Notes under the pieces: model-generated
The model's input: only the letters and a program-made list of their open reading frames with translations
Database searches by the model: none
What the model was told of the DNA's origin: nothing
Shown here: positions 1 to 21,284 of the stretch, piece by piece
How positions within the stretch are numbered: the first letter of the stretch is position 1
Layout: each line of letters begins with the position of its first letter
Source of the DNA: Escherichia phage vB_EcoS-606R9
Strand: one strand, 5' to 3'
Sequence record: ON470581
Length of the DNA stretch: 21,284 bases
Position numbers and translations under genes: made by a program

Positions 1-15
1 TTTGTGGGGTCAGCA

Positions 16-480: not shown

Positions 481-617
481 AATCTTAACTACAATATGAT
501 TCATTTTGATGATTGTTTCATAAGGAACAGTGAAGTAAGATCTAAGAGGAGTTAAATTTTATACAGTATAATCATAATATTGCAGCAAGGTGGTTATAAT
601 TGAAAGAATATTTAGAT

Positions 618-2075: not shown

Positions 2076-2161
2076 TATATGGCTGATTTATAATTGTGAG
2101 TTTAATATTATGTTGACTCACTCATTGATCCAATACCTAACTTTACCAGCAACCCCTCCGT

Positions 2162-2196
2162 CCCCAGTAGCACTGGCTGCTGGGGTGCGTTTTATT
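2162..2196 (+). terminator. Putative intrinsic terminator downstream of trkG
   Basis: Inverted repeat CCCCAGTAGC / GCTGCTGGGG (about 10 bp stem with one G-U, 4-nt loop) followed by TGCGTTTTATT; sits at the AT-rich to GC-normal transition. Confidence 0.45.
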
Positions 2197-2212
2197 CATA
2201 AAGCAAGGCTGT

Positions 2213-3929: not shown

Positions 3930-4116
3930 CGTTCTGGATGTTGATCTGAACCGACTGAAAGAAAATCGGGAAGCAATGACAGATTTTTATGCGGCCATCC
4001 GTAAGGGCAGAGCGAAAGGTGAAGCCGAGTTACGAGCGGCATTGTTTAAGCTTGCCAGAAAAGGGGATGCCTTTGCTCTGCGCGAACTACTCAGGGTGGA
4101 TAAAAATCAGGACTAA
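3907..4116 (+). CDS. Small hypothetical protein, possible helix-turn-helix / packaging-associated
   Basis: About 70 aa from ATG 3907 (track ORF from 3865); overlaps the 3' end of the upstream gene and ends 3 nt before the small terminase start; basic, helix-rich (AAIRKGRAKGEAELRAALFKLARKG). Start is uncertain. Confidence 0.35.
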   Translation: MTAQQIADVLDVDLNRLKENREAMTDFYAAIRKGRAKGEAELRAALFKLARKGDAFALRELLRVDKNQD

Positions 4117-4119
4117 CTG

Positions 4120-5214
4120 ATGAGCAGACCGGACTGGGGGGCGTTGCAGCAGGAGTATATTGCTGAATACACCCGCTCCGGTATATCTCCGGTGGCATGG
4201 TGTGAAGCAAGGGGACTGAATTACGCAACAGCCCGTCGTTACATCAAAAAAACTCCGAAAAATGCGCAGACAGAAATGTGCAAAACTGCGCAAAAAAGTG
4301 CGCAGAAAAAATCTGCGCAGACTGCACAAAAGCGGAACGAAAAATCTCAGGAAAAAAAGCCAGTATTCGATGCGGGCCTGAATGAGGGCGACGCGGAGGA
4401 ATTTTCGTTCTGTCCCGATGAATTCGGCATTTCTGACCAGCAGGCTAAGTTTGCGATGCTTGTTGCTCAGGGTAAAAAGCCGACAGAGGCGTACCGACTA
4501 GCCGGTTATGAGGGGCAAGGTGCGACAGCTAACAGCAACGCCAGTCGTATGCTTAGAAATGCCAGGGTTTTTCGCGCTATCAGCTACTTCCGCAATCAGT
4601 ACCAGAAACGCTATACCGCAGACCTGGATTTACTAGTGAGTCAGTTGATGGCTATTGTCCTGGCCGACCCCAATCAGCTTGCACAATTTCGCCGTGTTAA
4701 CTGCCGTTATTGCTGGGGCGAGAATCATCTCTACCAGTGGCGCGATATAGCAGAATTCGACAAGGCAGCGGCGCAGGCTTCCAGAGATGGCAAACCCGAA
4801 CCGGAATATGGAGGCCTCGGCTTTGTTGATAACGCCATACCCAATCCGGACTGCCCGAAGTGCTGCGGTGAGGGAACGGGACAGCTTTATATGGCTGATA
4901 CCACTCTGCTTGATGGGGATGCGCGGCAATTATATGCAGGGGCAAAATTCGGAAAATTCGGCGTTGAGATCCTGCTGGAGGATAAGGCTGCCGCCCGGCG
5001 TGAATTGTTGCGTTTGCTTTCTGCTGGCGGGGATTTATGTGCAGATAAGCGGCTACAGGAACTGGAAATTGAACGGCGCAGAATGGAAAACCAGAAGCTG
5101 CGCAAAGAGATCGAAACGGTGGAAGATAATGAACATCCCCAGCCTGTGGCGATCAATATTAATGTGGTTGATGCCAGAGTAAGGAGTGATGAAGATGATC
5201 TCTCCGACGCTTAA
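4120..5214 (+). CDS. Putative terminase small subunit (DNA-recognition component)
   Basis: Sits immediately upstream of, and overlaps, the large terminase gene; N-terminal HTH-like segment (GISPVAWCEARGLNYATARRYIKK), a Lys/Gln-rich low-complexity linker, Cys-rich segment (CRYCW...CPKCC), C-terminal coiled coil. Assigned by position and architecture. Confidence 0.5.
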   Translation: MSRPDWGALQQEYIAEYTRSGISPVAWCEARGLNYATARRYIKKTPKNAQTEMCKTAQKSAQKKSAQTAQKRNEKSQEKKPVFDAGLNEGDAEEFSFCPDEFGISDQQAKFAMLVAQGKKPTEAYRLAGYEGQGATANSNASRMLRNARVFRAISYFRNQYQKRYTADLDLLVSQLMAIVLADPNQLAQFRRVNCRYCWGENHLYQWRDIAEFDKAAAQASRDGKPEPEYGGLGFVDNAIPNPDCPKCCGEGTGQLYMADTTLLDGDARQLYAGAKFGKFGVEILLEDKAAARRELLRLLSAGGDLCADKRLQELEIERRRMENQKLRKEIETVEDNEHPQPVAININVVDARVRSDEDDLSDA

Positions 5215-6496
5215 TGTGCCTCAGGCGCGATTTCTTTCAATGCCCCATAAATTTAAAGCCTATATTGCTGGTTTTGGCTCGGGCAAAACATGGGTTGGGT
5301 GTGGCGGCATATGCAAGGGGATTTGGGAGCATCCAGGTATAAATCAGGGATATTTTGCGCCAACGTATCCCCAAATTCGCGATATTTTTTACCCTACAGT
5401 GGAAGAAGTTGCTGCTGACTGGGGATTGAACGTAAAAATTAATGAGGGAAATAAAGAGGTTCACTTTTATTACGGACGCCAGTATCGGGGAACCACTATC
5501 TGCAGATCGATGGAGAAGCCACAAACGATCGTCGGTTTCAAAATTGGTAATGCGTTGGTGGATGAACTGGACATTTTGCCGAAGGAAAAAGCCAGAACGG
5601 CGTGGCGCAAGATAATTGCGCGTATGCGTTATAAGATTGATGGACTTCGCAACGGTATTGACGTTACAACCACGCCGGAAGGATTCAAATTTGTCTACGA
5701 GCAGTTTGTTAAAGCCGTGCGTGAAAAAACAGAGCTGGCCTCACTGTATGGTCTGGTGCAGGCATCTACTTTCGATAATGAAAAGAACCTGCCAGCAGAT
5801 TACATTCCTTCGCTTCTTGAATCATACCCTCCAGAGCTGATTAAAGCCTATCTGCGAGGACAGTTTACTAACCTGACAAGTGGTACTGTTTACCATCAGT
5901 TTGACCGGAAACTGAATAATTGCGAAGAAGTGGAGCAGCCAGGGGAGCCGATTTATATTGGGATGGATTTTAACGTTGGAAAGATGGCGGGAATCGTCCA
6001 TGTGCTGCGTTTGGGGCTTCCATGTGCGGTAACTGAAATCATCAATGCCTACGATACGCCGGATATGATCCGCATCATTAAAGAACGCTTCTGGCTGTAT
6101 GATGGGAATGATTACCGGAAAGTGAGGGAAATTTATATTTATCCAGATGCTTCCGGGGATTCCAGAAAATCAAGTAACGCAAGTACGACGGATATAGCCC
6201 AGCTTAAGCAGGCTGGTTTTAACGTTGTGGTGAACAGCTCGAACCCGCCAGTAAAAGATCGCGTTAACTCAATGAATGCAATGTTCTGCAATGCCAATGG
6301 TGAGCGTCGCTATAAAGTTAATGTGAAGCGTTGCCCGTTATATGCCGAATCTCTGGAGCAACAGGTCTGGGATGAGAAGGGGGAGCCTGATAAAAAATCT
6401 GGCAATGATCACCCGAATGATGCCGGAGGTTATTTCATCGTTAAGCAATTCCCTATTGTCAAACCGACCGGAAGAGTCACATCACTTCGGATTTAA
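5195..6496 (+). CDS. Terminase large subunit (ATPase/nuclease)
   Basis: Walker A-like YIAGFGSGKT near the N-terminus and Walker B-like ALVDELD; sits between the putative small terminase and portal genes. ATG 5195 chosen for its spacing from AAGGAG at 5181-5186; alternative starts at 5186 and 5189. Confidence 0.8.
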   Translation: MISPTLNVPQARFLSMPHKFKAYIAGFGSGKTWVGCGGICKGIWEHPGINQGYFAPTYPQIRDIFYPTVEEVAADWGLNVKINEGNKEVHFYYGRQYRGTTICRSMEKPQTIVGFKIGNALVDELDILPKEKARTAWRKIIARMRYKIDGLRNGIDVTTTPEGFKFVYEQFVKAVREKTELASLYGLVQASTFDNEKNLPADYIPSLLESYPPELIKAYLRGQFTNLTSGTVYHQFDRKLNNCEEVEQPGEPIYIGMDFNVGKMAGIVHVLRLGLPCAVTEIINAYDTPDMIRIIKERFWLYDGNDYRKVREIYIYPDASGDSRKSSNASTTDIAQLKQAGFNVVVNSSNPPVKDRVNSMNAMFCNANGERRYKVNVKRCPLYAESLEQQVWDEKGEPDKKSGNDHPNDAGGYFIVKQFPIVKPTGRVTSLRI

Positions 6497-6498
6497 TT

Positions 6499-7905
6499 AT
6501 GGCTGATATATCAACACCCAACCTCGACTATAACGATATGCTGGAGGCGTGGGATATTAACGACGCACTGATGGGCGGTACGCTTGAAATGCGCAGGCAG
6601 GGGGAAAATTATCTCCCAAAATGGCCTAACGAAGATGAAGACGCTTATAAAAAACGCCTGTCTGTGGCTACGCTACTTCCTGTGTATGAAGAAAGCATCA
6701 AGCAAAATATTGGGCGCATATTTGCAGAGCCGACAGTATTGAGTGAGGAAACGCCGGCAAAAATCAGGGAATATGCAGAAAATATCGACATGGAGGGAAG
6801 CCGACTGGATGTGTGGGCGCAGCAATTTTTCAGCCTCGCATTTCAGTATGGTGTGGCACATGCGCTGGTGGACTATCCACGAACGGATATGAAAGAGATT
6901 CGGACAAAAGCCGATGAAAACGCGGCCGGTAGTCGTCCGTACGTTACGATGCTGAATCCACGCCAGGTTATTGGATGGAAATCGAAAGTTGAAAAAGGGA
7001 AAGTTGTTCTCACTGATTTGCGTATAAAAGAGGTCATCATTATTGATGGTGATGATTTCGGGCAGAAGAAGGTGGAGCAGATCCGCCATATTATGCCCCG
7101 TCGAGTTGAAATTTATCGACGTAGCGAAGGCACTAATGGCGAATCTGTCTGGACGCTTCATGAGTCATGGAATACCAGCCGTGATGATATTCCTCTGGTA
7201 ACACTGTACACGAAGAAAACAGGATTTATGCGTGGTACACCGCCATTGCTTAATCTTGGCTTGCTGAATATCAAGCACTGGCAAAGCCAGAGCGAGCAGG
7301 ACAATATTCTTCATGTTGCCCGCGTTCCATTGCTGGTGGCCTACGGGCTGGACAGGAATGAAGAACTGACGGTTGGTGCATCCACCGCTACGATTTTTGA
7401 GGACAGAACAAAAAATGGCCTCGAATATGTTGAACATAGTGGCGCAGCGATAGAATCTGGCGAAACATCACTTGAGAAGCTGGAAAATCAGATGCGTCAT
7501 GCCGGCGCTAAACTTCTGCGTGCTGAAAATACATCCACCAAATCTGTTGATCAGACTAATGAAGAGCGAATGCAGGAAAACTCGCCGCTTTATACAATGG
7601 CGAACTCCCTCGAAGATGCCCTCGATAATATTCTCCAGATAATGGCGGAATGGATCGGAGAGAGTTGCGGTGGCAATGTGGATGTGCGCACTGAACTGGA
7701 TGTATCTGCCCAGGTGTTTGACTCATCCTCCGCGCTGGCTGTTCAGTCATTGCGTCAGGGCGGTGATATACGTCAGATTGATGCGATTCGGGTGTTGCAG
7801 GCGTTGAAATTTATCGATCAGGATTCCCGTCCAGAGGAAGTGATCGATGAATTAAAAAATCAGAGTGTAATGCTGATGGAAATCAATGATGCAAACCGTG
7901 AATGA
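6499..7905 (+). CDS. Portal protein (putative)
   Basis: 468-aa ORF starting 3 nt after the large terminase stop; size and position typical of a portal gene. No motif verified. Confidence 0.6.
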   Translation: MADISTPNLDYNDMLEAWDINDALMGGTLEMRRQGENYLPKWPNEDEDAYKKRLSVATLLPVYEESIKQNIGRIFAEPTVLSEETPAKIREYAENIDMEGSRLDVWAQQFFSLAFQYGVAHALVDYPRTDMKEIRTKADENAAGSRPYVTMLNPRQVIGWKSKVEKGKVVLTDLRIKEVIIIDGDDFGQKKVEQIRHIMPRRVEIYRRSEGTNGESVWTLHESWNTSRDDIPLVTLYTKKTGFMRGTPPLLNLGLLNIKHWQSQSEQDNILHVARVPLLVAYGLDRNEELTVGASTATIFEDRTKNGLEYVEHSGAAIESGETSLEKLENQMRHAGAKLLRAENTSTKSVDQTNEERMQENSPLYTMANSLEDALDNILQIMAEWIGESCGGNVDVRTELDVSAQVFDSSSALAVQSLRQGGDIRQIDAIRVLQALKFIDQDSRPEEVIDELKNQSVMLMEINDANRE

Positions 7906-9001
7906 ACGGCTGCGTGATGAATCAATTGCTCATGCAGTCTGGATATCCCGCTATAGCACTGGCGTGGCTGCCAGAATGGTGAAAATACTGAATGACAGCG
8001 ATGCGGAACTTACTGCTCGCCTGCTGATAGCACTGGACAGCCTCGATCCAGGTAGTTTTACCGTTAAGCGCCTGGAGTCACTTCTGGCGAGCGTCAGAGA
8101 GGTTAACCGCACTGCTATTAACAGCATGTTTACCAGTCTCTCCGGAGAGCTGAACGAGCTGGCAATTTATGAGGCTGGTTATCAGTTAAGTCTGTTTGAT
8201 TCTATGCTACCTGATTTTGTTGCTGATGTTCACCCTCTGGTTGGTATCTCTCCTGATGCACTTTATGCCGCTGCAATGGCGCGACCATTTCAGGGACGAC
8301 TGCTCAGTGAGTGGGCCTCAGATCTTGAGGCGGATCGGCTCAGACGCATAACAAATACAGTGCGTCAGGGTTTTTTGCTGGGGGATACCAATGAGCAGAT
8401 CGCAAGAAAAATTCGGGGACATGTCAGTAAGGGATTTCAGGATGGTGCATTGCAGATGAGCCGGGCTAATGCGGCCAGCATTGCAAAAACAGCGGTTGGA
8501 CATCTTGCTGCTACTGCCCGTGAGAGTTTTGCCAGCGCGAATAATGATTTGATTAAGGGTAAGCAATGGTTATCAACGCTTGATAATCGTACTACGCCAC
8601 AATGTCGAATCAGGGATCGCCTCAAATATACGCTGAATAATAAACCTGTAGGTCACAGCGTGCCTTATTTGCAGGGGCCGGGAAAAATTCATTTCTGCTG
8701 CCGCTCAACGGAAACGTTCATTCTGAAATCAGCGAAGGAACTGGGTATTGATGTTCGCGATATTTCCCCGGCTGAGCGGGCCAGCATGGATGGCGTGGTG
8801 GCCGGAGATACAACCTACAGGGAATGGTTTTTGCGTCAGCCTTACACCAGACAAAAACAGATTGTGGGGGAAACCCGAGCAAAGCTGATTCGGGATGGTG
8901 GTATGTCGCCAGATGAATTTTACACCGATAAAGGCGAATGGCTGACGCTGAAGCAGCTCCGTGAGCGTGATGCACAGGTATTCAGAAAAGCAGGGATTTA
9001 A
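7886..9001 (+). CDS. Head morphogenesis protein (MuF / SPP1 gp7-like minor head protein), putative
   Basis: 371-aa ORF overlapping the portal 3' end; a portal, MuF-like, scaffold, capsid order is typical. Assigned by position and general resemblance. Confidence 0.55.
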   Translation: MMQTVNERLRDESIAHAVWISRYSTGVAARMVKILNDSDAELTARLLIALDSLDPGSFTVKRLESLLASVREVNRTAINSMFTSLSGELNELAIYEAGYQLSLFDSMLPDFVADVHPLVGISPDALYAAAMARPFQGRLLSEWASDLEADRLRRITNTVRQGFLLGDTNEQIARKIRGHVSKGFQDGALQMSRANAASIAKTAVGHLAATARESFASANNDLIKGKQWLSTLDNRTTPQCRIRDRLKYTLNNKPVGHSVPYLQGPGKIHFCCRSTETFILKSAKELGIDVRDISPAERASMDGVVAGDTTYREWFLRQPYTRQKQIVGETRAKLIRDGGMSPDEFYTDKGEWLTLKQLRERDAQVFRKAGI

Positions 9002-9020
9002 ATAAATCATTTATTACAAC

Positions 9021-9048
9021 AGGCTACCTTCGGGTGGCCTTTTTTATT
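9021..9048 (+). terminator. Intrinsic terminator-like hairpin after the head morphogenesis gene
   Basis: AGGCTACC-TTCG-GGTGGCCT (8-bp stem with one G-U, UUCG tetraloop) followed directly by TTTTTATT. Confidence 0.65.
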
Positions 9049-9105
9049 GCTGCGATCCGGATGGTGAGCAGCGTAACTGTCGGAAGACTTAAACCAGGTA
9101 CTAAT

Positions 9106-9870
9106 ATGAAACTGAAAACGGTCGAGATTAACGGAAAACAATACGCAGAAATTGATACTGCTGGCCTGCCAGTTTATGTGCACGACGATGGTAAAGAAAT
9201 TGGCTTCGATGCACCGCTGGCGACAAAAAAAATTACAGAGCTTAATAGCGAGGCAAAAAATCATCGCCTGGCTAAAGAAGCTGCAGAGGAAAAACTGGCT
9301 AAGTTTGCCGCTATCGAAGACCCGAAGAAGGCGATCGAGGCACTGGAAATGCTGTCAAAAATCGACCAGAAAAAGCTGCTCGATGCGGGACAGGTTGACC
9401 AGGTTAAGGCAGAAATTACGAAAAATTTTCAGCAGCAATTAGATGAAGAAAAGCAACGCTCTCAGATGCTGGAGAAGCAGCTTTACGATTCTATGATTGG
9501 CGGTAGTTTTGCGGGTTCAAAATATATTGCCGATAAAATTGCGATCCCGGCAGATTTATTACAATCACGCTTCGGGCAGGCATTCAAAGTGGAAGAAGGG
9601 AGGATCGTTGCTTATGACGCTTCCGGCAACAAAATTTATTCCCGCGCGAAGCCTGGCGAACTGGCGCAGTTTGATGAGGCGCTGGAGTTCCTTGTCGAAA
9701 ATTACCCTCAGAAAGACTACATCCTGAAAGCCAGTGGCAACAATGGCGGCGGCTCCCGTCCGACACAGCATGATATTGGTCAGAAAACGATGAAACGCTC
9801 TGCTTTTGATGCACTGGATGTTGCAGGTAAGCAAAACGCATTGAAAGACGGTATCACAATCGTTGATTAA
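9106..9870 (+). CDS. Scaffolding protein (putative)
   Basis: Helical, charged, coiled-coil-like sequence (EAAEEKLAKFAAIEDPKKAIEALEMLSKIDQKKLLDAG...) immediately upstream of the major capsid gene. Track ORF starts at 9034, but that overlaps the terminator hairpin; ATG 9106 (MKLKTVEING) preferred, ATG 9061 possible. Confidence 0.5.
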   Translation: MKLKTVEINGKQYAEIDTAGLPVYVHDDGKEIGFDAPLATKKITELNSEAKNHRLAKEAAEEKLAKFAAIEDPKKAIEALEMLSKIDQKKLLDAGQVDQVKAEITKNFQQQLDEEKQRSQMLEKQLYDSMIGGSFAGSKYIADKIAIPADLLQSRFGQAFKVEEGRIVAYDASGNKIYSRAKPGELAQFDEALEFLVENYPQKDYILKASGNNGGGSRPTQHDIGQKTMKRSAFDALDVAGKQNALKDGITIVD

Positions 9871-9968
9871 CACATTTGTCAGCTTCCGGATGGGAGCTGG
9901 TGTCAGGGCTGGATAGCTCATTACTCCATCTATTCACAATTACGCAAATTTTTAAGGAATATTTAATT

Positions 9969-11108
9969 ATGGCTGGAAATACCCTGACCGGGTTGATCCC
10001 GACTATTTATACCGCCCTGGATGTTGTATCCCGTGAGCAGGTAGGTTTTATCCCTGCGGTAGCAAAAAACGCAAAAGCTGACGCCGCAGCAAAAGATCAG
10101 ACGGTAACCGCGCCAGTTGCGCCTGAGGCGAAAACCGAAGATATCGTACCGGGGCCGTCAGCTCCGAATACCGGTGATCAAAATATTGGCACTGTTGATG
10201 TAAAAATTACTAAATCCAAAATGGCACCGGTTAAATGGAATGGTGAAGAACAACTGGCTCTTGGTCCTTCAGGGACTTACAACACCATTCTGGCTGATCA
10301 GTTCAAGCAGGCTTTTCGCGCCCTTGCAAACGAGGTTGAGGCTGATCTTGGTGCGTTGTATTTCGGTGCTTCCCGCGCCGTGGGAACCGCAGGGACAACG
10401 CCGTTTGGTGTTAAAGATGATCTTTCTGATGCTGCTCTGGCTCGTCAGGTTCTGGAGGATAACGGCGCACCGACAACCGATCTGCAGATGGTGCTTGGCT
10501 CCACTGCCATTGCTAATTTGCGCGGAAAACAGTCTGTATTGTTTAAAGTGAATGAATCCGGCACTGAACAGCTACTGCGTGAGGGCGTGTTGGGGCGTCT
10601 GGAGGGATTCAATATTCACAGTTCGGCAGGTGTGAAACGAGCGCCAAAGGTTGCTGCAACTGGTTATCTCGTGAATGGAGAGAAAAAAGAAGGCGATGTT
10701 CTTATTTCCATTGATACTGGTTCGGGGAGTATTTCTGCAGGTCAGATTGTTACGTTCGCTGGTGATCCGAATCAGTATGTTGTGGCAGCAGCGACCAGCA
10801 ATCTGATTACTCTTGCAGCGCCCGGACTGCGTCAGGATCTGGCCGATGATACTGCCATCACAGTTGTTGGGGCCTTTACTGCAAATATGGCGTTTGATCG
10901 CAACGCGTTTCTGCTGGCATCCCGTACTCCGGCAATGCCGGAAGGTGGCGATAATGCTGATGATGTAATGAATGTTACGGACCCGATTTCAGGGATTACG
11001 TTCCAGATTGCACTGTATCGTCAGTATCGCCAGGTGCGCTATGAAGTTGGACTGGCATGGGGTGTTTCATCAGTGAAGCCGGCACATGGTTGTCTGATTC
11101 TTGGTTAA
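9969..11108 (+). CDS. Major capsid protein (putative)
   Basis: 379 aa from ATG 9969 with AAGGA about 10 nt upstream (track ORF begins at TTG 9876 with no RBS); follows the scaffold gene and is followed by a strong terminator hairpin, typical of a highly expressed coat gene. Confidence 0.65.
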   Translation: MAGNTLTGLIPTIYTALDVVSREQVGFIPAVAKNAKADAAAKDQTVTAPVAPEAKTEDIVPGPSAPNTGDQNIGTVDVKITKSKMAPVKWNGEEQLALGPSGTYNTILADQFKQAFRALANEVEADLGALYFGASRAVGTAGTTPFGVKDDLSDAALARQVLEDNGAPTTDLQMVLGSTAIANLRGKQSVLFKVNESGTEQLLREGVLGRLEGFNIHSSAGVKRAPKVAATGYLVNGEKKEGDVLISIDTGSGSISAGQIVTFAGDPNQYVVAAATSNLITLAAPGLRQDLADDTAITVVGAFTANMAFDRNAFLLASRTPAMPEGGDNADDVMNVTDPISGITFQIALYRQYRQVRYEVGLAWGVSSVKPAHGCLILG

Positions 11109-11118
11109 ACATTCAAAC

Positions 11119-11140
11119 GGGGCTTCGGCCCCATTTTTAA
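11119..11140 (+). terminator. Intrinsic terminator-like hairpin after the major capsid gene
   Basis: GGGGC-TTCG-GCCCC (5-bp all-GC stem, UUCG tetraloop) followed by ATTTTTAA, 11 nt after the capsid stop. Confidence 0.55.
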
Positions 11141-11150
11141 TGGGGGGCAT

Positions 11151-11327
11151 ATGGCCGGATTAACTAAAGAGCAAAGAGCACAGCGTGAAGCCGCACAAAA
11201 AACGCAAATTGAGTTAGTGGTTATGGTGACCGATTATCAGATGTTTCCCGGCGCACCAACTATCGCTAATGTTCATCCTGATGAAGTTGACAACTGGAAG
11301 GCTATGGGCTGGAAAACTCAGGAGTAA
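11151..11327 (+). CDS. Small hypothetical protein (58 aa), not in the supplied ORF track
   Basis: ATG 11151 to TAA 11325-11327, translating MAGLTKEQRAQREAAQKTQIELVVMVTDYQMFPGAPTIANVHPDEVDNWKAMGWKTQE; fills the gap between the capsid terminator and the next gene, same strand. Coding status unproven. Confidence 0.3.
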   Translation: MAGLTKEQRAQREAAQKTQIELVVMVTDYQMFPGAPTIANVHPDEVDNWKAMGWKTQE

Positions 11328-11330
11328 CAC

Positions 11331-11726
11331 ATGATCACTTACGTGACCTGTGATGACGTTGATAATGCGTTTGGGAACGCCTGGACGAGTGAGAACGCTA
11401 AAAATAAAGCTGTTTTAATGGCTAATGCCTGGCTTAATGGCTTCAACCTGAAAATTAACCCATCCCGTATTCCGGAAGAGGTAAAACTTGCGGGAGCATA
11501 TGCAGCCAGAATTGCCTCATTTGGTAAGTTGTTTCAGCAGAAAAATGATTCTGGCGTTGTTATCAGTAAAGCCGTGTCGGCTGACGGGGTCAGTGTATCG
11601 AAATCATTTTCTGAGTTGCCAGCAAACAGCACTGCATTGCTTGAACCCGATTTACAGCTTGCGATAGCACTGCTGAAACCGTACGGACTTAGTCGCTCAC
11701 AAGTCAGGGTTGTGAGGGGGGGATAA
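11331..11726 (+). CDS. Head completion / head-tail connector protein (putative, by position)
   Basis: 131-aa ORF, first of four tightly packed small genes (about 126-131 aa each) between capsid and major tail genes, with start/stop overlaps typical of head-tail joining genes. Confidence 0.4.
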   Translation: MITYVTCDDVDNAFGNAWTSENAKNKAVLMANAWLNGFNLKINPSRIPEEVKLAGAYAARIASFGKLFQQKNDSGVVISKAVSADGVSVSKSFSELPANSTALLEPDLQLAIALLKPYGLSRSQVRVVRGG

Positions 11727-12109
11727 TGGGGCTTCGTGAAGAGATTCAGTCAGAGGTTGCCGCTGCTTTTGATGAGGATTTAGCGGACGCCGTGAGTGAT
11801 TTTTCTGGTTATTACGTTACGCACCGGCACTGGGATCCTGTGACGGAAACTGGCGGCGAATCCACCGCAATCTATACCGGGCGAGGCGTGTTGACACGTT
11901 ATAAGCTGGGCAGAATTGATGGGATTAATATTTTGCATGGTGACCTTAAATTAACCGCTCTGGTATGCGAGGTTACGGATAAACCAGCTGTCGACCATAT
12001 TATTGAGATTTATGATCCTGTATCAAGGCAGTTACAACGATACGAGGTAATTACAGCAAGTTTAGATCCTTCCGCATCAGTTTACTCTATCCAGTTAAGG
12101 AGAGCGTAA
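11726..12109 (+). CDS. Head-tail joining protein (putative, by position)
   Basis: 127-aa ORF whose start overlaps the upstream stop (ATAATGG); position within the head-tail joining block. Confidence 0.4.
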   Translation: MGLREEIQSEVAAAFDEDLADAVSDFSGYYVTHRHWDPVTETGGESTAIYTGRGVLTRYKLGRIDGINILHGDLKLTALVCEVTDKPAVDHIIEIYDPVSRQLQRYEVITASLDPSASVYSIQLRRA

Positions 12110-12490
12110 ATGGCAAAGGCATGGGATATAGAACCGTCAATATTTGCCGGGATGATTGAGGAAGATGTAGGGCTGAAGATTCGCTACATCGCTATGCAGA
12201 TTCTTACTGCTATTGATATTGCTGCTCCGGTTGATACCGGACGTTTCAGAAATAACAACCTGGTGTCGTTACAGCATCCCGATTTTGGTATATCTGATAA
12301 CGTGGATCCGAACGGTACGATTGCTGTTCAGCGTGGGATCGGGGTTATTTCGAAAGCTGCAAATTACGGGGTTATTTATATCCAGAATAACCTTCCTTAT
12401 GCAGAGGCTCTTGAAAACGGTCATTCACAACAAGCGCCAACTGGCGTGTATGCCAACGCTTTTTATGGTGTTTTACAGGCTTACAAATGA
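12110..12490 (+). CDS. Tail component / neck protein (putative, by position)
   Basis: 126-aa ORF starting directly after the upstream stop; third gene of the head-tail joining block. Confidence 0.4.
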   Translation: MAKAWDIEPSIFAGMIEEDVGLKIRYIAMQILTAIDIAAPVDTGRFRNNNLVSLQHPDFGISDNVDPNGTIAVQRGIGVISKAANYGVIYIQNNLPYAEALENGHSQQAPTGVYANAFYGVLQAYK

Positions 12491-12879
12491 AGTTTACTGA
12501 AATCAGAAATACGGTTATTTCCAGAATGACGGCACAGACGATTATTGATGGAAAAGACGTATTGTATCCGAACGGGCCAACGTTCGATCCTTCCGGTAAG
12601 TTAATCTGGGCGCGGTTAAGTAATATTCCCGGGCAGGCTGGGGTTAATGAAATTGGCGCGGGGCCGGTTGTTTATCGCACGGGGATAATCATTATTCAGT
12701 TATTTGTCCCCGCAGGTTCTGGTTCAAAACTCATTACTGAGACAGCCGATAAATTGCGGGAACTGTTTGAGTTTCAGGATGACGATCGTCTCAGTTACCA
12801 GGCTGTTTCCTCAATAGCCGTCGGCGAAAAGAATGGCTGGTTCCAGCTTAATCTTCAAATTCCATATCGCGCGCTCTAG
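12487..12879 (+). CDS. Tail completion / tail terminator protein (putative, by position)
   Basis: 130-aa ORF overlapping the upstream stop (ATGA); immediately precedes the major tail gene, where lambda-like phages carry gpU-type tail terminators. Confidence 0.4.
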   Translation: MKFTEIRNTVISRMTAQTIIDGKDVLYPNGPTFDPSGKLIWARLSNIPGQAGVNEIGAGPVVYRTGIIIIQLFVPAGSGSKLITETADKLRELFEFQDDDRLSYQAVSSIAVGEKNGWFQLNLQIPYRAL

Positions 12880-12905
12880 CGCAATTAATGACATAGGAGG
12901 CTTCT

Positions 12906-13868
12906 GTGAGTTCAGGTGCAAAGGTTATCTCGGCATTTATCCGGGAGACAGTTGCAGGCACTACGCCAGCAAGTGGTGACTGGAGTTTATTAAAACGCAC
13001 AAGCTGGGGAGTAAAACCCACCCAGAATAAAGGCGAAAATAATGAGATTGGTGGCTCCCGGATGGCTCAGGGGGCGACGCCTGGCACTGTGGATGTCGGC
13101 GGTGATGTTGGTACCAAATTTCGCTGGGGTCAACATGATGATTTTCTTGCATCCTGTTTCGGCGCGGAATGGTCAGGCGATTCTCTGACAATGGGGAATG
13201 AGCGAATAACATTTTCTCTGGCGACCTATGCGTCCGATGTCGGAATTGCCTCTGTCGTCAGAGGAGCGCAGGTTGGCTCATGGAAAATGCAGATCCCTAA
13301 CGACGGCGATATTACAGCGACCGTAACCTTTGCCGGGCTGGGCTGGGAAACAAAGGCCGATGATACGAATTTTATCAAAGGCAAACCTGTGGATAGTGCA
13401 GGAAAGTTACGCTATTCGTTTAAGGAGGTTTCAGCAGTAAGCCTGAATGGTGTTGCCGGAGGTAACGGTTTTTGTATCGACAGTTTTGATATTCAGTTCG
13501 ATAACAAACTCCAGACACAGCGTTGTATCGGGACTGGCTCGCCTTATGCAGGAGCAAATATTCCGACTACTTTTACACCGTCCGGTACGGTGACGCTTTC
13601 ATGGTCTAAAGCCGCGTGGGAAATCTGGAGTAAAACACTGACTGGAGAAACAGTTCCGTTCAGCTTCACGCTTTCGAATGGAGAGGGGGCATACACTTTC
13701 AGTTTCCCGAAGGTTCAGGTGTCAGGTGAATGGCCTGATGGGGGTAATACTGACATTATCCAGGTTCAATTGAGCATTACCGCAGCAGATGAAGCACCTA
13801 CGATAACCAGAAAAAAATGCTCCCCGACTGCCGTGATCGCAAAAGCCAGTGCTGATGCGATTAGTTGA
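12906..13868 (+). CDS. Major tail (tube) protein (putative)
   Basis: 320-aa ORF with GTG start 12906, preceded by ATAGGAGG; Gly/Thr/Ser-rich beta-type composition; sits directly upstream of the G/G-T chaperone pair, as lambda V does. Confidence 0.6.
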   Translation: MSSGAKVISAFIRETVAGTTPASGDWSLLKRTSWGVKPTQNKGENNEIGGSRMAQGATPGTVDVGGDVGTKFRWGQHDDFLASCFGAEWSGDSLTMGNERITFSLATYASDVGIASVVRGAQVGSWKMQIPNDGDITATVTFAGLGWETKADDTNFIKGKPVDSAGKLRYSFKEVSAVSLNGVAGGNGFCIDSFDIQFDNKLQTQRCIGTGSPYAGANIPTTFTPSGTVTLSWSKAAWEIWSKTLTGETVPFSFTLSNGEGAYTFSFPKVQVSGEWPDGGNTDIIQVQLSITAADEAPTITRKKCSPTAVIAKASADAIS

Positions 13869-13880
13869 TTTTCCGTTATT

Positions 13881-13907
13881 CCCCCTGTGGTACTGCACTA
13901 CAGGGGG
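13881..13907 (+). promoter_or_regulatory. Hairpin upstream of the tail chaperone gene that includes its likely Shine-Dalgarno
   Basis: CCCCCTGT (13881-13888) pairs with ACAGGGGG (13900-13907), 8-bp stem and 11-nt loop, no U-tract. The GGGGGA at 13903-13908, the best SD for ATG 13917, lies in the 3' arm. Confidence 0.35.
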
Positions 13908-13916
13908 ACGCATTGA

Positions 13917-14378
13917 ATGAGGTTATGGATGTTTATTCTTAATCAGAAAATTATCATCGGTGGAGAACGCTGGTTTACGCCAATGAAGGACTTAAAACCT
14001 GTAGACGGGTTAAAACTGTTGGTGGCAAGCAGCGATAACGATCAGTATCGCTCCCGTAATGCATTAATCCGTCGTCACATTGAGAAAATGGATGCCAGTT
14101 TGCACGTCGGAACGAAGGAGTTTGATATTTCAAAGGTTTCCGAGGTAGATTCTGTTGATGATTTACTCATTGATAATGCTGCTCGTTATCTGCTGAAAGA
14201 CTGGAAAGGGGTTGGTGAACTGGTTAATGGTGCTGAGGTTGCACTGGAATATACGCCAGAACGAGGGATCGCGCTGCTTAAGCAGAATCCAGAGTTGTAC
14301 TGGCAGATCCTTGCAGAAGCAGCCAGCATCGCCCAGGGTAAAGAGCAGCAGAAGCAGGATACGATAAAAAAGCCATAG
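13917..14378 (+). CDS. G: Tail assembly chaperone (lambda gpG analogue)
   Basis: 153-aa acidic ORF between the major tail and tape measure genes, ending in the slippery heptamer A_AAA_AAG just before its TAG stop. Downstream ATGs at 13929 and 13983 are alternative starts. Confidence 0.65.
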   Translation: MRLWMFILNQKIIIGGERWFTPMKDLKPVDGLKLLVASSDNDQYRSRNALIRRHIEKMDASLHVGTKEFDISKVSEVDSVDDLLIDNAARYLLKDWKGVGELVNGAEVALEYTPERGIALLKQNPELYWQILAEAASIAQGKEQQKQDTIKKP

Positions 14379-14686
14379 CCGCCCAGCGGTGGTTATCGGA
14401 GTTCGGGGGAGAAAGGGGGGAAAAGGCAAGATGGAAGCGAGAAAAACTCAGGTTGCCACCGATACCGGAACCAGAAATAGACCCGGTGCTTAAGGAATTG
14501 TTGTACGCCTATTCGGTAATATCCCGTGCCCGACGTTATGCTGGAATGACCGGGGTGCCTTTGCCTTTATCTCTGACAGAGATAAATGAATATTTAGCCA
14601 CTCATCCGGTATTGATTGAGCGCGATGAGTTTGAAGCAGTGATCTTTGCACTGGATGACCAGTATTTTCAGGATCAGTGTGTGTAG
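13917..14686 (+). CDS. GT: Tail assembly chaperone G-T fusion made by programmed -1 ribosomal frameshift (predicted)
   Basis: The -1 frame relative to G is open from 14342 to the stop at 14684-14686; the slippery site A_AAA_AAG (14366-14372) lies in the overlap 2 codons before the G stop. Predicted fusion about 256 aa. The conserved G/G-T arrangement of lambda-like tails is established knowledge. Confidence 0.6.
14366..14372 (+). promoter_or_regulatory. -1 programmed frameshift slippery heptamer A_AAA_AAG
   Basis: In the G frame the codons are AAA (14367-14369) and AAG (14370-14372), preceded by A at 14366; this is the same heptamer as the E. coli dnaX frameshift site. Confidence 0.6.
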
Positions 14687-14810
14687 TTGTTAATTACGTA
14701 CACTCTGTTACAGAGATGTGATGGTGTCTTTAATTAAATCGATGATGCTCCTGGAGAAAAGCATTGCGTGGCCTCGTAATCGCTATATCTACTATTATGT
14801 CGCCTGAAAC

Positions 14811-14838
14811 CCACTTCGGTGGGCTTTTTGTTGTCTGG
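14811..14838 (+). terminator. Terminator-like hairpin just upstream of the tape measure gene
   Basis: CCCAC-TTCG-GTGGG (5-bp stem, UUCG tetraloop) followed by CTTTTTGTTGT; lies in the 163-nt spacer between the G-T stop (14686) and the tape measure start (14850). Confidence 0.45.
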
Positions 14839-14849
14839 AGTTTTAATAA

Positions 14850-17348
14850 ATGGCAGAGCAAACCTCGCGTCTCGCAATAATTATTGATAGCACTGGAGCA
14901 AAAAATAATGCTGACAATCTGACCTCCTCATTAGTCAAAATGACGCAGGCCGGGGAAACTGCTGCAAATAGCGCAGGGAAAGTGACTAAGGCAACAGAAG
15001 ATGAGAAGAACGCGCTCGCAAAATTAAAAGTAGCTATTGATCCAGTTGGTGCCGCAATTGATACTGTCGGTCGACGCTATTCTGAATTAAAGAAATTTTT
15101 CGATAAAGGGCTTATTGATAAAGAAGAATATGAATTTCTTGTCCGTAAACTTAATGAAACCACAGAGGAATTGAGCGGGGTTGCGCAAGCGCAGAGAGAA
15201 GCCGAGAAGGCCGGAAAACTTGCTGCCGCCCAGCAGGAAGCGCAGGCTCAGGCCTTTCAAAGAATGCTGGACAAGATCGACCCTCTGGCTGCGGCGCTAA
15301 GAAATCTTGAACAACAGCAGGATGAACTTAATGCTGCGTTTGCATCCGGGAAAATAAATGGTTCTCAGTTTGAGAATTATAGCCGAAAAATACAGGAAAC
15401 ACGGCGAGAGCTTACCGGAGAGGCTCAGGCAGAGCGAGAAGCAGCAAAAGCGCATGATGAACAGGTTGCTGCTTTGCAACGTCTGATTGCTCAACTTGAC
15501 CCTGTCGGAACTGCTTTTAATCGTCTGGTAGAACAACAGAAACAGCTCAATGAAGCAAAAGCTAAGGGGATGCTCTCTCCTGAAATGTATGAGGAACTTT
15601 CTGGAAAACTTCGTGCTATGCGGAGTGAGCTTGAGGTTACTCAATCTCAATTAAGCAAAACCGGAATGTCGGCAAAACAAACGGCTTTTGCTATGCGCAT
15701 GTTGCCTGCACAAATGACGGATATTGTTGTTGGGTTGTCCACTGGTCAGTCGCCTTTTATGGTGTTAATGCAGCAGGGCGGCCAGCTAAAAGATATGTTC
15801 GGTGGGATTGGCCCGGCGATCAAAGGTGTTGGTTCTTATGTGCTGGGATTAATTAATCCTTTTACCCTGGCCGCAGCAGCCGTTGGCGTCTTAGGGCTGG
15901 CTTACTATAAAGGCTCTCAGGAGCAGGACGAATTTAATAAATCTCTTATTCTTACCGGAAATCAGTTGGGGACAACCAGCGGGCAATTGGCCGATATAGC
16001 TCAACGTGCCGGGAATGCGGCTGATTCGACAACTGGCGCTGCGGCGGCAGTATTAAACCAGCTTGTGCGTTCGGGAAAGGTAGCGAGCAGTTCGCTGGAG
16101 CAAGTGACGACAGCGATAGTAAAAACGAGCGAAGTAACAGGAATATCAACCGAACAACTGGTTAATGACTTCAATGAAATTGCAAAGGATCCTGTCAGTG
16201 CCATATCAAAACTTAATGATCAGTACCATTTTCTGACAATTGCGACTTATAACCAGATTAAGGCGCTACAGGATGAAGGGAACCAGCAGGAGGCCGCCCG
16301 CATTGCGACAGAAGCATACTCATCCTCAATGATCCAGCGCACCAACCAGATTAAAGAAAATCTTGGTTATCTTGAGACTGCATGGAAAGCTGTCGCAGAC
16401 TCCGCAAAATGGGCATGGGATTCCATGCTGGACATTGGCCGTGAGGCCTCCCTTGATCAAAAAATCTCAGATGTTCTCCGTCAAATTGATGAAATAGAAA
16501 AAAATACCCGACCCGGAGTTTTCGGGTTAGGTGGCATTGGAGATGGCGGAGCTCAAAATAAAAGGCTGGCACGATTAAAGCAGCAATTGGGCGTACTTCA
16601 AGCAGAAAAAATTGCTCAGGACGTCCTAAATTCATCAATAAACGATTACAACAAGCGACAACAGGAAGGAATTGAACTCAGACAGAGAGCAGATGCCTTT
16701 TCAAAACAATATCAGACCCGGGAGCAGCAGAGAGCTAGTGAACTTGCAAAACTGGAAAAGCTAAAGAGTCAGTATTCAAAGGAAGAATATAATAATTTTA
16801 TCGCTCAAATAAATGAGCGTTATAAAGATCCAAAGCAACCAAAGGCGAAAGGTTATTCGGATGATGCTGCCCAACGAATGATTGATCATCTGAATCAACA
16901 GAATGCGTTACTAAGTTCACAAACTGAATTAACCGTTAAATTAAGTTCCTCTGAACAGGAACTGGTTAAGTGGCGTCAGCAGATTGCCGACCTGGAGTCA
17001 CGACCGTCATCGAAATTAACCCAGGATCAGAAATCGCTTCTCTTACACCGGGAAGAAATAACCGCGTTGATGGAGAAAAATGTTGCGATTGAAAAAAATA
17101 ACAGGCTAATCAAGGAATCCGCCGAAATAGCTGCATGGCGTGATTTATTGCAGGCTTCGATTGATAATCGTCAACAGGGGTATGATATTCAGATTGCTGG
17201 TTATGGGGTTGGCGATAAAAATCAGCAACGCCAGCAGGAATTACTGCGGATTGAACGTGAATATAACAATCAGCGTCTGCAACTTGAACGTGACTATGCA
17301 GATAAATCCCGTGGGATGTCAAATCATGTTTTTCAGGAGAAAATGTAG
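14850..17348 (+). CDS. H: Tail tape measure protein, N-terminal 832 codons ending at an in-frame TAG
   Basis: Long Ala/Gln/Glu-rich coiled-coil ORF with an internal hydrophobic glycine-rich segment, directly after G/G-T and before the M, L, K, I, J homologues. The ORF ends at TAG 17346-17348, but the same frame stays open for a further 245 codons to 18083. Confidence 0.75.
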
Positions 17349-18083
17349 GCTCTGAATGATGCTCTGGAACGAGAAAAAGAAATTGTCAGACAGAAAAACG
17401 AGCAGCTCGATATTCAGGCAGGAGACTGGGTTAGTGGTGCCTCCCAGGGATTCAATAACTGGCTGGATGACACTAAGGATATCAGTGAGCAGATAAAATC
17501 AACCACGACTCAGATGTTTGATGGAATGACCGATGCGCTGGGTGATTTTGTCACGACAGGCAAGGCAAATTTTCGTTCTTTCGCTACTTCCGTGATTTCG
17601 GATCTTAGTCGAATAGCATTAAAGGCTTCAATTACTGGGATTTTCGACAGCATTAGTAACAGTTCTTCGGGGGGGATTTTAGGAACTATCGGGAGTGCTA
17701 TTAGTAAATTTATTCCGAATGCAAAGGGCGGTGTTTATGAGTCTCCGTCATTGAACACGTATTCGAACGGTATTTATGATTCCCCGCAATTTTTTGCTTT
17801 TGCAAAAGGGGCTGGTGTTTTTGGTGAGGCTGGTCCGGAAGCCATTATGCCATTAACACGAACATCCGATGGTTCTCTTGGTGTCAGAGCTATTAATAGT
17901 AAAAGTGGTAATGGAGGCGGAGATATTACCTATGCCCCTGTATACCAAATCACTATTCAAAATGACGGCCAGAATGGAGAGATTGGCCCTCAGGCAATAA
18001 AAGCACTTATGGGGATGGTTGATCAGCGGGTGCAGGGCAATCTGTTAAATATGCGACGTGATGGGGGAATGTTAAGTGGCTAA
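17349..18083 (+). CDS. H: Tail tape measure protein, C-terminal segment downstream of the in-frame TAG (same frame, no independent start signal seen)
   Basis: Frame is continuous with 14850..17348 (both coordinates are multiples of 3); encodes ...MFDGMTDALGDFVTTGKANFRSFATSVISDLSRIALKA..., which resembles the lambda gpH C-terminal region from memory. First ATG is at 17514 with no obvious SD. The stop overlaps the M start. Confidence 0.6.
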   Translation, partial: ALNDALEREKEIVRQKNEQLDIQAGDWVSGASQGFNNWLDDTKDISEQIKSTTTQMFDGMTDALGDFVTTGKANFRSFATSVISDLSRIALKASITGIFDSISNSSSGGILGTIGSAISKFIPNAKGGVYESPSLNTYSNGIYDSPQFFAFAKGAGVFGEAGPEAIMPLTRTSDGSLGVRAINSKSGNGGGDITYAPVYQITIQNDGQNGEIGPQAIKALMGMVDQRVQGNLLNMRRDGGMLSG

Positions 18084-18414
18084 TACGGAAGAATTTCACT
18101 GGTTACCAGAGGATGGAATGAAAACAGAAAATAAACCATCGATAAAAACTGTAAGATTTGGCGATGGTTATGAGCAACGAAGTCCAAATGGACTTAATCA
18201 TTCTCTGCGCGTTTTCACCTGTGATTTCAAAGTTGAGGCGAATGAACGTGATTCATTTGAAAAATTTTTAGCCCGGCATGAAGGCTATAAATCTTTTTTT
18301 TGGCGCCCGCCTGGTATTAACAGAAAAATCAGAGTGGTGTGTCGAACGTGGTCAGCGACAGAACATATCACCTATACCGATTTTTCGTGTCAGTTTGACG
18401 AAGTGGTGATCTGA
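18076..18414 (+). CDS. M: Minor tail protein M (lambda gpM homologue)
   Basis: 112 aa from GTG 18076, overlapping the tape measure stop; contains VRFGDGYEQRSPNGLN and KSFFWRPP, matching lambda gpM (VRFGDGYSQRAPAGLN, KSFLWTPP) as I recall it; the N-terminal spacing of F, W, G, M residues also matches, which supports the GTG start over ATG 18118. Confidence 0.85.
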   Translation: MANTEEFHWLPEDGMKTENKPSIKTVRFGDGYEQRSPNGLNHSLRVFTCDFKVEANERDSFEKFLARHEGYKSFFWRPPGINRKIRVVCRTWSATEHITYTDFSCQFDEVVI

Positions 18415-19112
18415 TGCAGGACATACAACAGGAAACGCTGAATGAATGCATTCGTGCGGAGCAGTCGGCCAGCGTGGTGCTCTGGGAAATCGACCTGACC
18501 GAGGTAGGCGGGGATCGCTACTTTTTCTGCAATGAGCAGAACGAGAAAGGAGAGTCTGTCACCTGGCAGAGTCGGCAGTATCAGGCCTATCCCATTCAGG
18601 GGAGTGGATTTGAGATGAACGGCAAAGGTGCCAGTGCAAGGCCAACGCTGAAAGTCTCTAATCTGCACGGCATGGTCACCGGGATGGCGGAAGACCTGCA
18701 GAGTCTGGTCGGCGGAACGGTGGTCAGGCGTAAGGTTTACGCCCGTTTTCTGGATGCGGTGAACTTCGTCAACGGAAACAGTGACGCCGATCCGGAGCAG
18801 GAGGTGATCAGCCGCTGGCGTATTGAGCAGTGCAGCGAACTGAGCGCGGTCAGTGCCTCCTTTGTACTGTCCACGCCGACGGAAACGGACGGCGCTGTTT
18901 TTCCGGGGCGCATCATGCTTGCTAATACCTGCACCTGGACCTATCGCGGTGATGAGTGCGGTTATCACGGTCCGGCGGTCGCGGATGAATATGACCAGCC
19001 GACATCCGAAATCACGAAGGATAAATGCAGCAAATGCCTGAGTGGCTGTAAGTTCCGCAATAATGTCGGCAACTTTGGCGGCTTCCTTTCCATTAACAAA
19101 CTTTCGCAGTAA
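18414..19112 (+). CDS. L: Minor tail protein L (lambda gpL homologue)
   Basis: 232 aa, beginning MQDIQQETLNECIRAEQSASVVLWEIDLTEVGGDRYFFCNEQNEKGE and ending CSKCLSGCKFRNNVGNFGGFLSINKLSQ, near-identical to lambda gpL from memory (same length, conserved C-terminal cysteine cluster). Start overlaps the M stop (ATGA). Confidence 0.95.
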   Translation: MQDIQQETLNECIRAEQSASVVLWEIDLTEVGGDRYFFCNEQNEKGESVTWQSRQYQAYPIQGSGFEMNGKGASARPTLKVSNLHGMVTGMAEDLQSLVGGTVVRRKVYARFLDAVNFVNGNSDADPEQEVISRWRIEQCSELSAVSASFVLSTPTETDGAVFPGRIMLANTCTWTYRGDECGYHGPAVADEYDQPTSEITKDKCSKCLSGCKFRNNVGNFGGFLSINKLSQ

Positions 19113-19117
19113 ATCCC

Positions 19118-19825
19118 ATGACAGNNNNNNNNNNNNNNNNNNNNNNNNNNNNNNNNNNNNNNTCGGAAGGGGAAAGATATTTTCCCTGCGTGAATATCTC
19201 CGGTGAGCCGGAGGAGTATTTCCGGATGTCGCCGGAGGACTGGCTGCGGGCAGAGATGCAGGGTGAGATTGTGGCGCTGGTCCACAGCCACCCCGGTGGT
19301 ATGCCCTGGCTGAGTGAGACCGACCGGCGGCTGCAGGTGCAGAGTGATTTGCCGTGGTGGCTGGTTTGCCGGGGAGCGATTCACAAGTTCCGCTGTGTGC
19401 CACATCTTTCCGGGCGGCGCTTTGAGCACGGGGTGACGGACTGTTACACGCTGTTCCGGGATGCTTACCATCTGGCGGGGATTGAGATGCCGGATTTTCA
19501 TCGCGAGGATGACTGGTGGCGTAACGGTCAGAATCTCTATCTGGATAATCTGGAGGCCACAGGGCTATATCAGGTGCCGTTGTCAGCGGCGCAGCCGGGC
19601 GATGTGCTGCTGTGCTGTTTTGGTTCATCGGTGCCGAATCATGCCGCCATTTACTGTGGTGACAGCGAGCTGCTGCACCATATTCCTGAACAACTGAGTA
19701 AACGAGAGAGGTACACCGACAAATGGCAGCGACGCACACACTCCCTCTGGCGTCACCGGGCATGGCACGCATCTGCCTTTACGGGGATTTGCAACGATTT
19801 GGCCGCCGCATCGACCTTCGAGTGA
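19118..19825 (+). CDS. K: Tail tip assembly protein K (JAB/MPN plus NlpC/P60-like), interrupted near the N-terminus by an assembly gap
   Basis: JAMM-type motif HSHPGGMPWLSETD and an NlpC/P60-like Cys/His region (GVTDCYTLFRDAYH ... PNHAAIY); the last 103 nt overlap gene I, as lambda K/I do. ATG 19118 is 3 nt after the L stop; ATG 19226 would give a 199-aa product and is an alternative start. The true length of the N-gap at 19125-19162 is unknown. Confidence 0.8.
   Translation: MTXXXXXXXXXXXXXSEGERYFPCVNISGEPEEYFRMSPEDWLRAEMQGEIVALVHSHPGGMPWLSETDRRLQVQSDLPWWLVCRGAIHKFRCVPHLSGRRFEHGVTDCYTLFRDAYHLAGIEMPDFHREDDWWRNGQNLYLDNLEATGLYQVPLSAAQPGDVLLCCFGSSVPNHAAIYCGDSELLHHIPEQLSKRERYTDKWQRRTHSLWRHRAWHASAFTGICNDLAAASTFE
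19125..19162. other. Assembly gap (run of 38 N)
   Basis: Literal N characters in the sequence; a scaffolding or masked gap, not biology. Confidence 0.99.
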
Positions 19826-20430: not shown

Positions 20431-21284
20431 ATGGGTAAAGGCAGNNNNNNNNNNTCCCGCGCGAAGCGAAGGACAACCTGAAATCATCCCAGATGCTGAG
20501 CGTGATAGACGCCATCAGTGAAGGGCCGATTGAAGGTCCGGTGGATGGATTAAAAAGCGTGCTGCTGAACAGTACGCCGGTGCTGGACAGTGAGGGGAAT
20601 ACCAATATCTCCGGCGTCACGGTGGTGTTCCGGGCAGGTGAGCAGGAGCAGTCACCGCCGGAGGGATTTGAATCCTCCGGTTCCGAGACGGTGCTGGGTA
20701 CGGAAGTGAAATATGAAACGCCGATCACCCGGACCATCACGTCGGCAAACATCGACCGTCTGCGCTTTACCTTCGGTGTACAGGCACTGGTGGAAACCAC
20801 CTCAAAGGGAGACAGGAATCCGTCGGAAGTCCGCCTGCTGGTTCAGATACAGCGTAACGGTGGCTGGGTGACGGAAAAAGACATCACCATTAAGGGCAAA
20901 ACCACCTCGCAGTATCTGGCCTCGGTGGTGGTGGGTAACCTGCCGCCGCGCCCGTTTAATATCCGGATGCGCAGGATGACGCCGGACAGCACCACAGACC
21001 AGCTGCAGAACAAAACGCTCTGGTCGTCATACACCGAGATCATCGATGTGAAACAGTGCTACCCGAACACGGCACTGGTCGGCGTACAGGTGGACTCGGA
21101 GCAGTTCGGCAGCCAGCAGGTGAGCCGTAATTATCATCTTCGCGGGCGCATTCTGCAGGTGCCGTCGAACTATAACCCGCAGACGCGACAATACAGCGGT
21201 ATCTGGGACGGAACGTTAAAACCAGCATACAGCAACAACATGGCCTGGTGTCTGTGGGATATGCTGACCCACCCGCGCTACGGC
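20431..21284 (+). CDS. J: Tip attachment / central tail fibre protein J, N-terminal part (continues beyond the window; reading frame broken by a 10-N gap)
   Basis: ATG 20431 with GTGAGGA SD; encodes MGKG..., then after the gap PREAKDNLKSSQMLSVIDAISEGPIEGPVDGLKSVLLNSTPVLD... through ...MAWCLWDMLTHPRYG, near-identical to the lambda gpJ N-terminus from memory. Frame before and after the gap differs, so the gap length is arbitrary. Confidence 0.9.
20445..20454. other. Assembly gap (run of 10 N) inside the 5' end of J
   Basis: Literal N characters; the apparent frame change across it is an assembly artefact. Confidence 0.99.

Follow-up and report, generated by a model that had tools for sequence, protein, structure and literature searches.

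The locus poses the question of why the tape measure gene of an Escherichia prophage should be divided by a single amber codon, and what that codon would mean for the phage. The sequence analysed was a stretch of 21,284 nucleotides from record ON470581 (Escherichia phage vB_EcoS-606R9), hereafter called the window; coordinates are those of the window, and the features of the locus described below all lie on its + strand. The initial annotation had offered four explanations for the interruption, namely a nonsense mutation that makes a cryptic prophage tail-defective, growth in an amber-suppressor host, low-level readthrough giving short and full-length products, and a base-call error in a draft assembly. 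The first of these is supported by the comparisons reported here: very probably, the amber codon is a genuine, recently derived and clonally inherited nonsense mutation, whose truncated product is predicted to leave the prophage tail-less.

The interrupted reading frame

Translation of positions 14850-18083 gave 832 sense codons, a TAG at 17346-17348, 244 further sense codons and a terminal stop, with VFQEKM*ALNDALEREKEIV as the peptide around the internal stop, which bears out the initial description of one frame that is open throughout save for this codon. In the list of open reading frames, the first part appears as an ORF of 832 residues (14850-17348), and the next in-frame ORF with an ATG as 17514-18083. 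The first 832 codons (14850..17345) form the N-terminal part of the present tape measure pseudogene and are the sole part expected to be translated efficiently; the C-terminal 244 codons and the stop (17349..18083) would now be untranslated. The tape measure gene was also run through Tandem Repeats Finder, which detected no repeats at the DNA level.

Downstream of the TAG, the first in-frame ATG, GTG or TTG occurs at 17514, 56 codons on, where three of six Shine-Dalgarno positions are matched and where a conserved C-terminal domain (PF09718, see below) is already under way, in agreement with the earlier remark that the downstream part has no convincing start or Shine-Dalgarno sequence of its own. 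GenBank record ON470587 annotates a second 'tape measure' CDS of 189 residues from this ATG (17514..18083). As a separate gene this CDS was rejected, being considered a gene-caller artefact on account of its missing Shine-Dalgarno sequence and its start within the domain.

Relationship to lambda gpH

Pfam searches, in which all three matches exceeded the curated cut-offs, placed TMP_2 (PF06791) at residues 267-471 (E 6.9e-82) and TMP_4 (PF24622) at residues 671-748 (E 1.9e-24), both upstream of the TAG, and Tape_meas_lam_C (PF09718) at residues 25-99 of the segment that follows it (E 2.4e-27), where the domain is complete and lies wholly past the stop. Colinearity of the N-terminal part with lambda gpH starts at residue 268, and in BLASTP residues 270-1077 were colinear with gpH 57-850 (28% identity, E 1e-80); phmmer against the solved lambda chain (PDB 8iyk_H) gave an E-value of 1.4e-71. 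Codon 833 maps near gpH residue 619, and the segment past the TAG to gpH ~620-850. Since a full PF09718 domain is found there, together with an alignment to the C-terminus of gpH, the open frame past the TAG is not due to chance. Against relatives, dN/dS amounted to 0.17-0.19 for the whole gene and to 0.06-0.10 for the segment past the TAG, which marks this segment as coding sequence that was constrained through the history of the family.

With lambda gpH (PDB 8iyk, 8iyl, 8k35) the gene shares the set of domains and the conserved extreme C-terminus. It differs in its length of 1077 codons, compared with 853 for gpH, having ~210 extra N-terminal residues that are absent from lambda, and in its interruption at codon 833, whereas gpH is one continuous chain across the corresponding point. 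Domains, end-to-end colinearity and a position between a G/GT chaperone pair and gpM-L-K-I-J are all those of the gpH family; a single uninterrupted frame with a functional full-length product is lost here to the TAG at codon 833. The gene is accordingly a lambda gpH-type tape measure by descent and a pseudogene by state.

Prophage context

The window covers the late half (lysis, head and tail) of a Rac-type lambdoid prophage adjoining ttcA in Escherichia coli, with the genes in the order Rz endopeptidase, trkG, ParB-like, terminase, portal, capsid, tail tube, ydaY, tape measure, M, L, K, I and the start of J. The same element is present in the complete genome of E. coli 266917_2 (NZ_CP026723.1, annotation of 120001-170000) as a Rac-type prophage of ~48 kb beside ttcA, which has intR, xisR, ralR, recET, kilR, racR and ydaS/T/U/V on its left side and tail fibres on its right, and of which the window is the right half. 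The assignment to the Rac type follows from the ttcA site, from the intR-xisR-ralR-recET-kilR-racR-ydaSTUV series and from trkG; these, along with ynaK and ydaY, are shared with the cryptic Rac prophage of E. coli K-12 and with the full-length relatives of Rac at ttcA. From the K-12 Rac most of the head and tail genes have been lost by deletion, whereas the prophage described here retains a full late region that is damaged by point lesions.

The gene order resembles that of lambda, with a V-like tube, G/T-like chaperones and H, M, L, K, I and J. Directly upstream of the tape measure lies ydaY (13929..14378), a G-like tail assembly chaperone by annotation and by its position, which is that of lambda G; it ends in TAG. 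Just before its stop, a slippery heptamer A_AAA_AAG (14366..14372) is in the phase required for a -1 shift to an open T-like frame (14342..14686), a putative extension that would add the T-like portion to a G-T fusion chaperone, with a weak Pfam match to Phage_TAC_18 (E 4e-4) under the curated cut-off. At its 3' end, the tape measure gene is overlapped by a gene for a gpM-like minor tail protein (18076..18414; Pfam Phage_min_tail, E 1.2e-31), mirroring the H/M overlap of lambda.

Positions 1-19124 of the window are identical to GenBank ON470587 ('Escherichia phage vB_EcoS-611R4'). This record and its neighbours hold prophage regions that PHASTER predicted in draft assemblies (Illumina/SPAdes) of clinical isolates producing carbapenemase (bioRxiv 10.1101/2022.06.29.498070), and are not virion genomes. 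Among the records found there was no sequenced virion of this phage type; those relatives in the phage collection that count as intact are predicted prophage regions as well. 'Salmonella phage SPF_0923' was a candidate for a genuine virion in which the gene is intact; it was rejected as a prophage prediction because its record holds the host genes sitABCD, uspF and ompN; in the literature, this phage was found in a passing mention alone.

Origin and distribution of the amber codon

Two runs of N (19125-19162 and 20445-20454) confirm the initial impression that the window is a draft assembly (Illumina/SPAdes, scaffolded); both lie past the TAG, by ~1.8 kb and ~3.1 kb, and are unrelated to it. 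At least 25 finished E. coli chromosomes matched a query of 901 bases around the TAG at 100% identity. A 61-mer with the T at its centre had exact matches in 32 complete E. coli genomes; these carriers, sampled in many countries and sequenced by many laboratories, derive from humans, gulls, dogs, river water, sewage and shellfish. Over its whole length of 3,234 bases, the gene is identical in the window and in the complete genome of WP5-S18-ESBL-07, with 1 base differing over positions 1-19124 and 5 over the 21 kb outside the N gaps. Despite the draft nature of the window, a base-call or assembly error hiding a true CAG is thus excluded for the allele as such, and hardly conceivable for the window itself.

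In the uninterrupted relatives ON470609 and ON032529 codon 833 is CAG (Gln), and the corresponding CAG 61-mer, otherwise of the same local haplotype, was exact in 312 complete genomes, so that the TAG, with its 32, is the minority state. The closest comparison is offered by the sister strain Z142-2, which has this prophage at the identical site, the same chromosomal flank and many identical protein accessions. Its tape measure is annotated as intact, with 1077 residues and CAG at codon 833, and differs from that of the window at 3 of 3,234 bases, position 17346 among them. The amber codon (17346..17348), codon 833 of 1077, can on this comparison be traced to a single C-to-T transition at 17346 that turned CAG into TAG. 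No homologue in the comparison ends at codon 833 or possesses a separate gene downstream of it; the alignment at this site, which had been proposed as a check, consequently favours a real mutation.

For the distribution of the TAG, 10.8 kb of sequence outside the prophage, from abgR to ttcA, was used as a query against 5,405 genomes. Among the best 50 of these 5,405 genomes were 31 of the 32 TAG carriers, all at 100.0% identity; the other 19 of the best 50, Z142-2 included, are without the TAG. The carriers 266917_2 and 28Eco12 belong to ST38 and are of differing serotypes (PMC6963479). With 31 of 32 carriers on one flank haplotype and two of them documented as ST38, the simplest reading is that the TAG arose once within the ST38 lineage and was inherited vertically with the chromosome; it could then act as a simple lineage marker inside ST38. 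Another of the carriers is simply named 'ST38'.

Predicted consequence for tail assembly

In the lambda tail gpH is a trimer with its C-terminus in the tail tip, where, within the tip lumen, the gpI trimer holds a three-helix coiled coil made up of residues 818-842 (PMC10721106). These residues align with ~1045-1069 of the present frame, far past the TAG. The course of events that we propose starts with the nonsense mutation from CAG to TAG at codon 833, which would have occurred once, in the ST38 lineage, and would since have been passed on with the chromosome. Translation would stop at the TAG and yield a product of 832 residues that lacks the whole of PF09718 and the equivalent of the tip-anchored gpH coiled coil. 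From the loss of these two elements we infer that tail assembly would fail, and the prophage is predicted to form no infectious particles on its own; the tail-defective phenotype is one deduced from the lambda structure and the alignment.

Electron microscopy of a mitomycin lysate of the TAG-carrying isolate Eco_611 showed a siphovirus (bioRxiv 10.1101/2022.06.29.498070). The particle is not attributable to this prophage, as the lysate was mixed and the strain has several prophage-like regions.

Suppression, readthrough and recoding

Among the readings that compete with a plain loss of function, the one that fares best, while still unlikely, is that the amber is leaky: misreading of UAG by the near-cognate tRNA-Gln(CUG) would give a little full-length protein and with it a low ability to build tails. 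Glutamine is reportedly inserted at UAG in E. coli that is free of suppressors (Nilsson and Ryden-Aulin 2003), and with an ancestral CAG codon the product of such a leak would be exactly the wild-type tape measure. Few molecules would be needed per tail, the lambda tail holding just one gpH trimer (PMC10721106), and the other late genes are intact; the siphovirus in the Eco_611 lysate would also fit, could its EM particle be attributed. Against this reading, there is no sign of a readthrough enhancer, the 100 bases past the TAG folding no better than shuffled sequence (z = 0.09), and a suppressor tRNA was found neither in the prophage nor at the glnV/glnX locus of a carrier; surplus truncated protein might, moreover, well poison assembly. 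It is slightly less likely again that trace amounts of wild-type protein, at three copies per tail, suffice for rare infectious particles, so that the prophage would not be fully dead. Were this the case, the prophage of the ST38 clone would keep a strongly attenuated but non-zero transmission, and the Eco_611 siphovirus could be this phage. The low-level readthrough proposed initially would in this sense amount to background leakiness, and is unlikely; there is no indication of a programmed event, the stop not being conserved in relatives, no RNA structure coming after it, and TAG serving as an ordinary terminator nearby.

It is far less probable that the interruption is natural design, be it programmed readthrough, recoding of TAG to Gln, or a tape measure that is naturally split and served by its own start or by reinitiation. 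Recoding of TAG to Gln in late genes occurs in some gut phages, and GenBank annotates two 'tape measure' CDSs here. The stop is not conserved, however, the great majority of relatives and the nearest sibling having CAG, and none of RNA structure, a cognate suppressor tRNA or avoidance of TAG was found to accompany it: TAG terminates three neighbouring genes, and the one at codon 833 is the lone in-frame TAG among 23 genes. No tRNA gene is present in the window, and the sole tRNAs of the whole prophage are Thr(tgt) and Gly(tcc), neither of them a suppressor. The other objections are the position of the earliest downstream start, 56 codons on and inside a domain, and the continuity of lambda gpH.

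A conditional-lethal (sus-type) amber phage kept in a supE (glnV amber-suppressor) host can be dismissed as extremely improbable: a CAG-to-TAG change is the textbook target of supE suppression, but the element is a chromosomal prophage found in natural isolates (humans, gulls, rivers and sewage), the supE allele of glnV (anticodon CTA), exact in 155 genomes, was confined to K-12 laboratory derivatives and absent from TAG carriers among the 60 matches listed, and in the carrier 266917_2 (NZ_CP026723.1) the glnX-glnV-metU-glnW-glnU cluster has the wild-type Gln anticodons ctg (twice, glnV/glnX) and ttg (twice, glnU/glnW), in a check that covered this cluster and the prophage tRNAs. The amber-suppressor host of the initial annotation is excluded on these grounds, the suggested inspection of a host for a supE/glnV-type suppressor having turned up none in this one carrier. 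The classical amber (sus) mutants in lambda tail genes likewise changed CAG to TAG and were suppressible by supE with insertion of the original glutamine; unlike these, the present amber is of natural origin and resides in a prophage of a wild clone, without the involvement of a suppressor host.

State of decay and annotation

With a nonsense mutation as the preferred explanation, the state of the remaining late region bears on its age. Of the window's other genes, 22 were checked and none has an internal stop, so the amber is probably recent and not the outcome of long decay; secondary decay of the late operon that would confirm relaxed selection is not seen. The locus illustrates cleanly how prophage decay begins: a single point lesion has become fixed in a clinically successful clone, with the late operon otherwise intact.

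The significance of the finding is small beyond bookkeeping; the pseudogene is already annotated in RefSeq and the lesion is of a very common kind. It does call for caution in the use of databases, in which this element figures as an 'Escherichia phage' of GenBank with two tape measure CDSs, and as 'intact' according to PHASTER, although the prediction is that it builds no tails. In both carriers examined, PGAP annotates the tape measure as a pseudogene with an internal stop. Further lesions were seen in individual carriers, with ydaU frameshifted and ynaK partial in one and a tail fibre gene broken in another; together with the PGAP call, they speak for an element that is decaying.

Tail genes

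The tape measure protein carries an N-terminal region of about 210-267 residues (window 14850-15650, residues 1-267) that has no counterpart in, and distinguishes it from, lambda gpH. Within this region lie three loosely similar units of ~50-70 residues, each with Asp-Pro at its start (DPVGAAIDT..., DPLAAALRN... and DPVGTAFNR...); no DNA-level tandem repeat was found in the gene.

Directly upstream, a slippery heptamer, A_AAA_AAG, lies in phase at window 14366-14372, near the end of the G-like tail assembly chaperone gene ydaY (window 13929-14378, plus strand) and just 5' of its TAG stop codon, and the -1 frame overlapping this end is open (window 14342-14686). This arrangement looks like the conserved frameshift of G/GT tail chaperones; in both the GenBank and the PGAP annotation, the region is represented as two separate ORFs and not as a fusion.

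Assembly gaps and record quality

Both N runs of the window under-represent the missing sequence: in gene K, 38 Ns (window 19125-19162) stand in for 74 bases, and near the start of gene J, 10 Ns (window 20445-20454) stand in for 14 bases, the latter of which would introduce an artificial frameshift into gene J. A 460-residue antisense ORF (window 18390-19772, minus strand), which covers genes L and K, crosses the first of these gaps, its translation containing 13 X residues, and is probably an artefact of it.

The record ON032529, titled 'Salmonella phage SPF_0923, complete genome', ends (28143-35262) in the chromosomal genes sitDCBA, uspF, ompN and a pyruvate-flavodoxin oxidoreductase gene, which form the right-hand flank of the prophage in the E. 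coli carriers. ON032529 is thus a predicted prophage region including host DNA, and its assignment to Salmonella looks doubtful.

Accessory genes

The potassium transporter gene trkG and the ParB/Srx-like gene ynaK (window 651-3004) separate the lysis cassette from the terminase genes; ynaK (ParB-like) is intact in the window, but partial in the carrier 266917_2. The names given to the gene at window 7886-9001 disagree, with GenBank listing a NAD+--asparagine ADP-ribosyltransferase and PGAP a phage minor head protein.

In the 266917_2 chromosome (NZ_CP026723.1, L005), the parts of this prophage that lie beyond the window include, in regions 10227-11085 and 13263-16656, a frameshifted ydaU as well as the anti-phage pair iteA/iteS and the toxin genes ralR, kilR and ydaS/ydaT. 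The anti-phage and toxin genes are a cargo that could be a reason for the host to retain the prophage.
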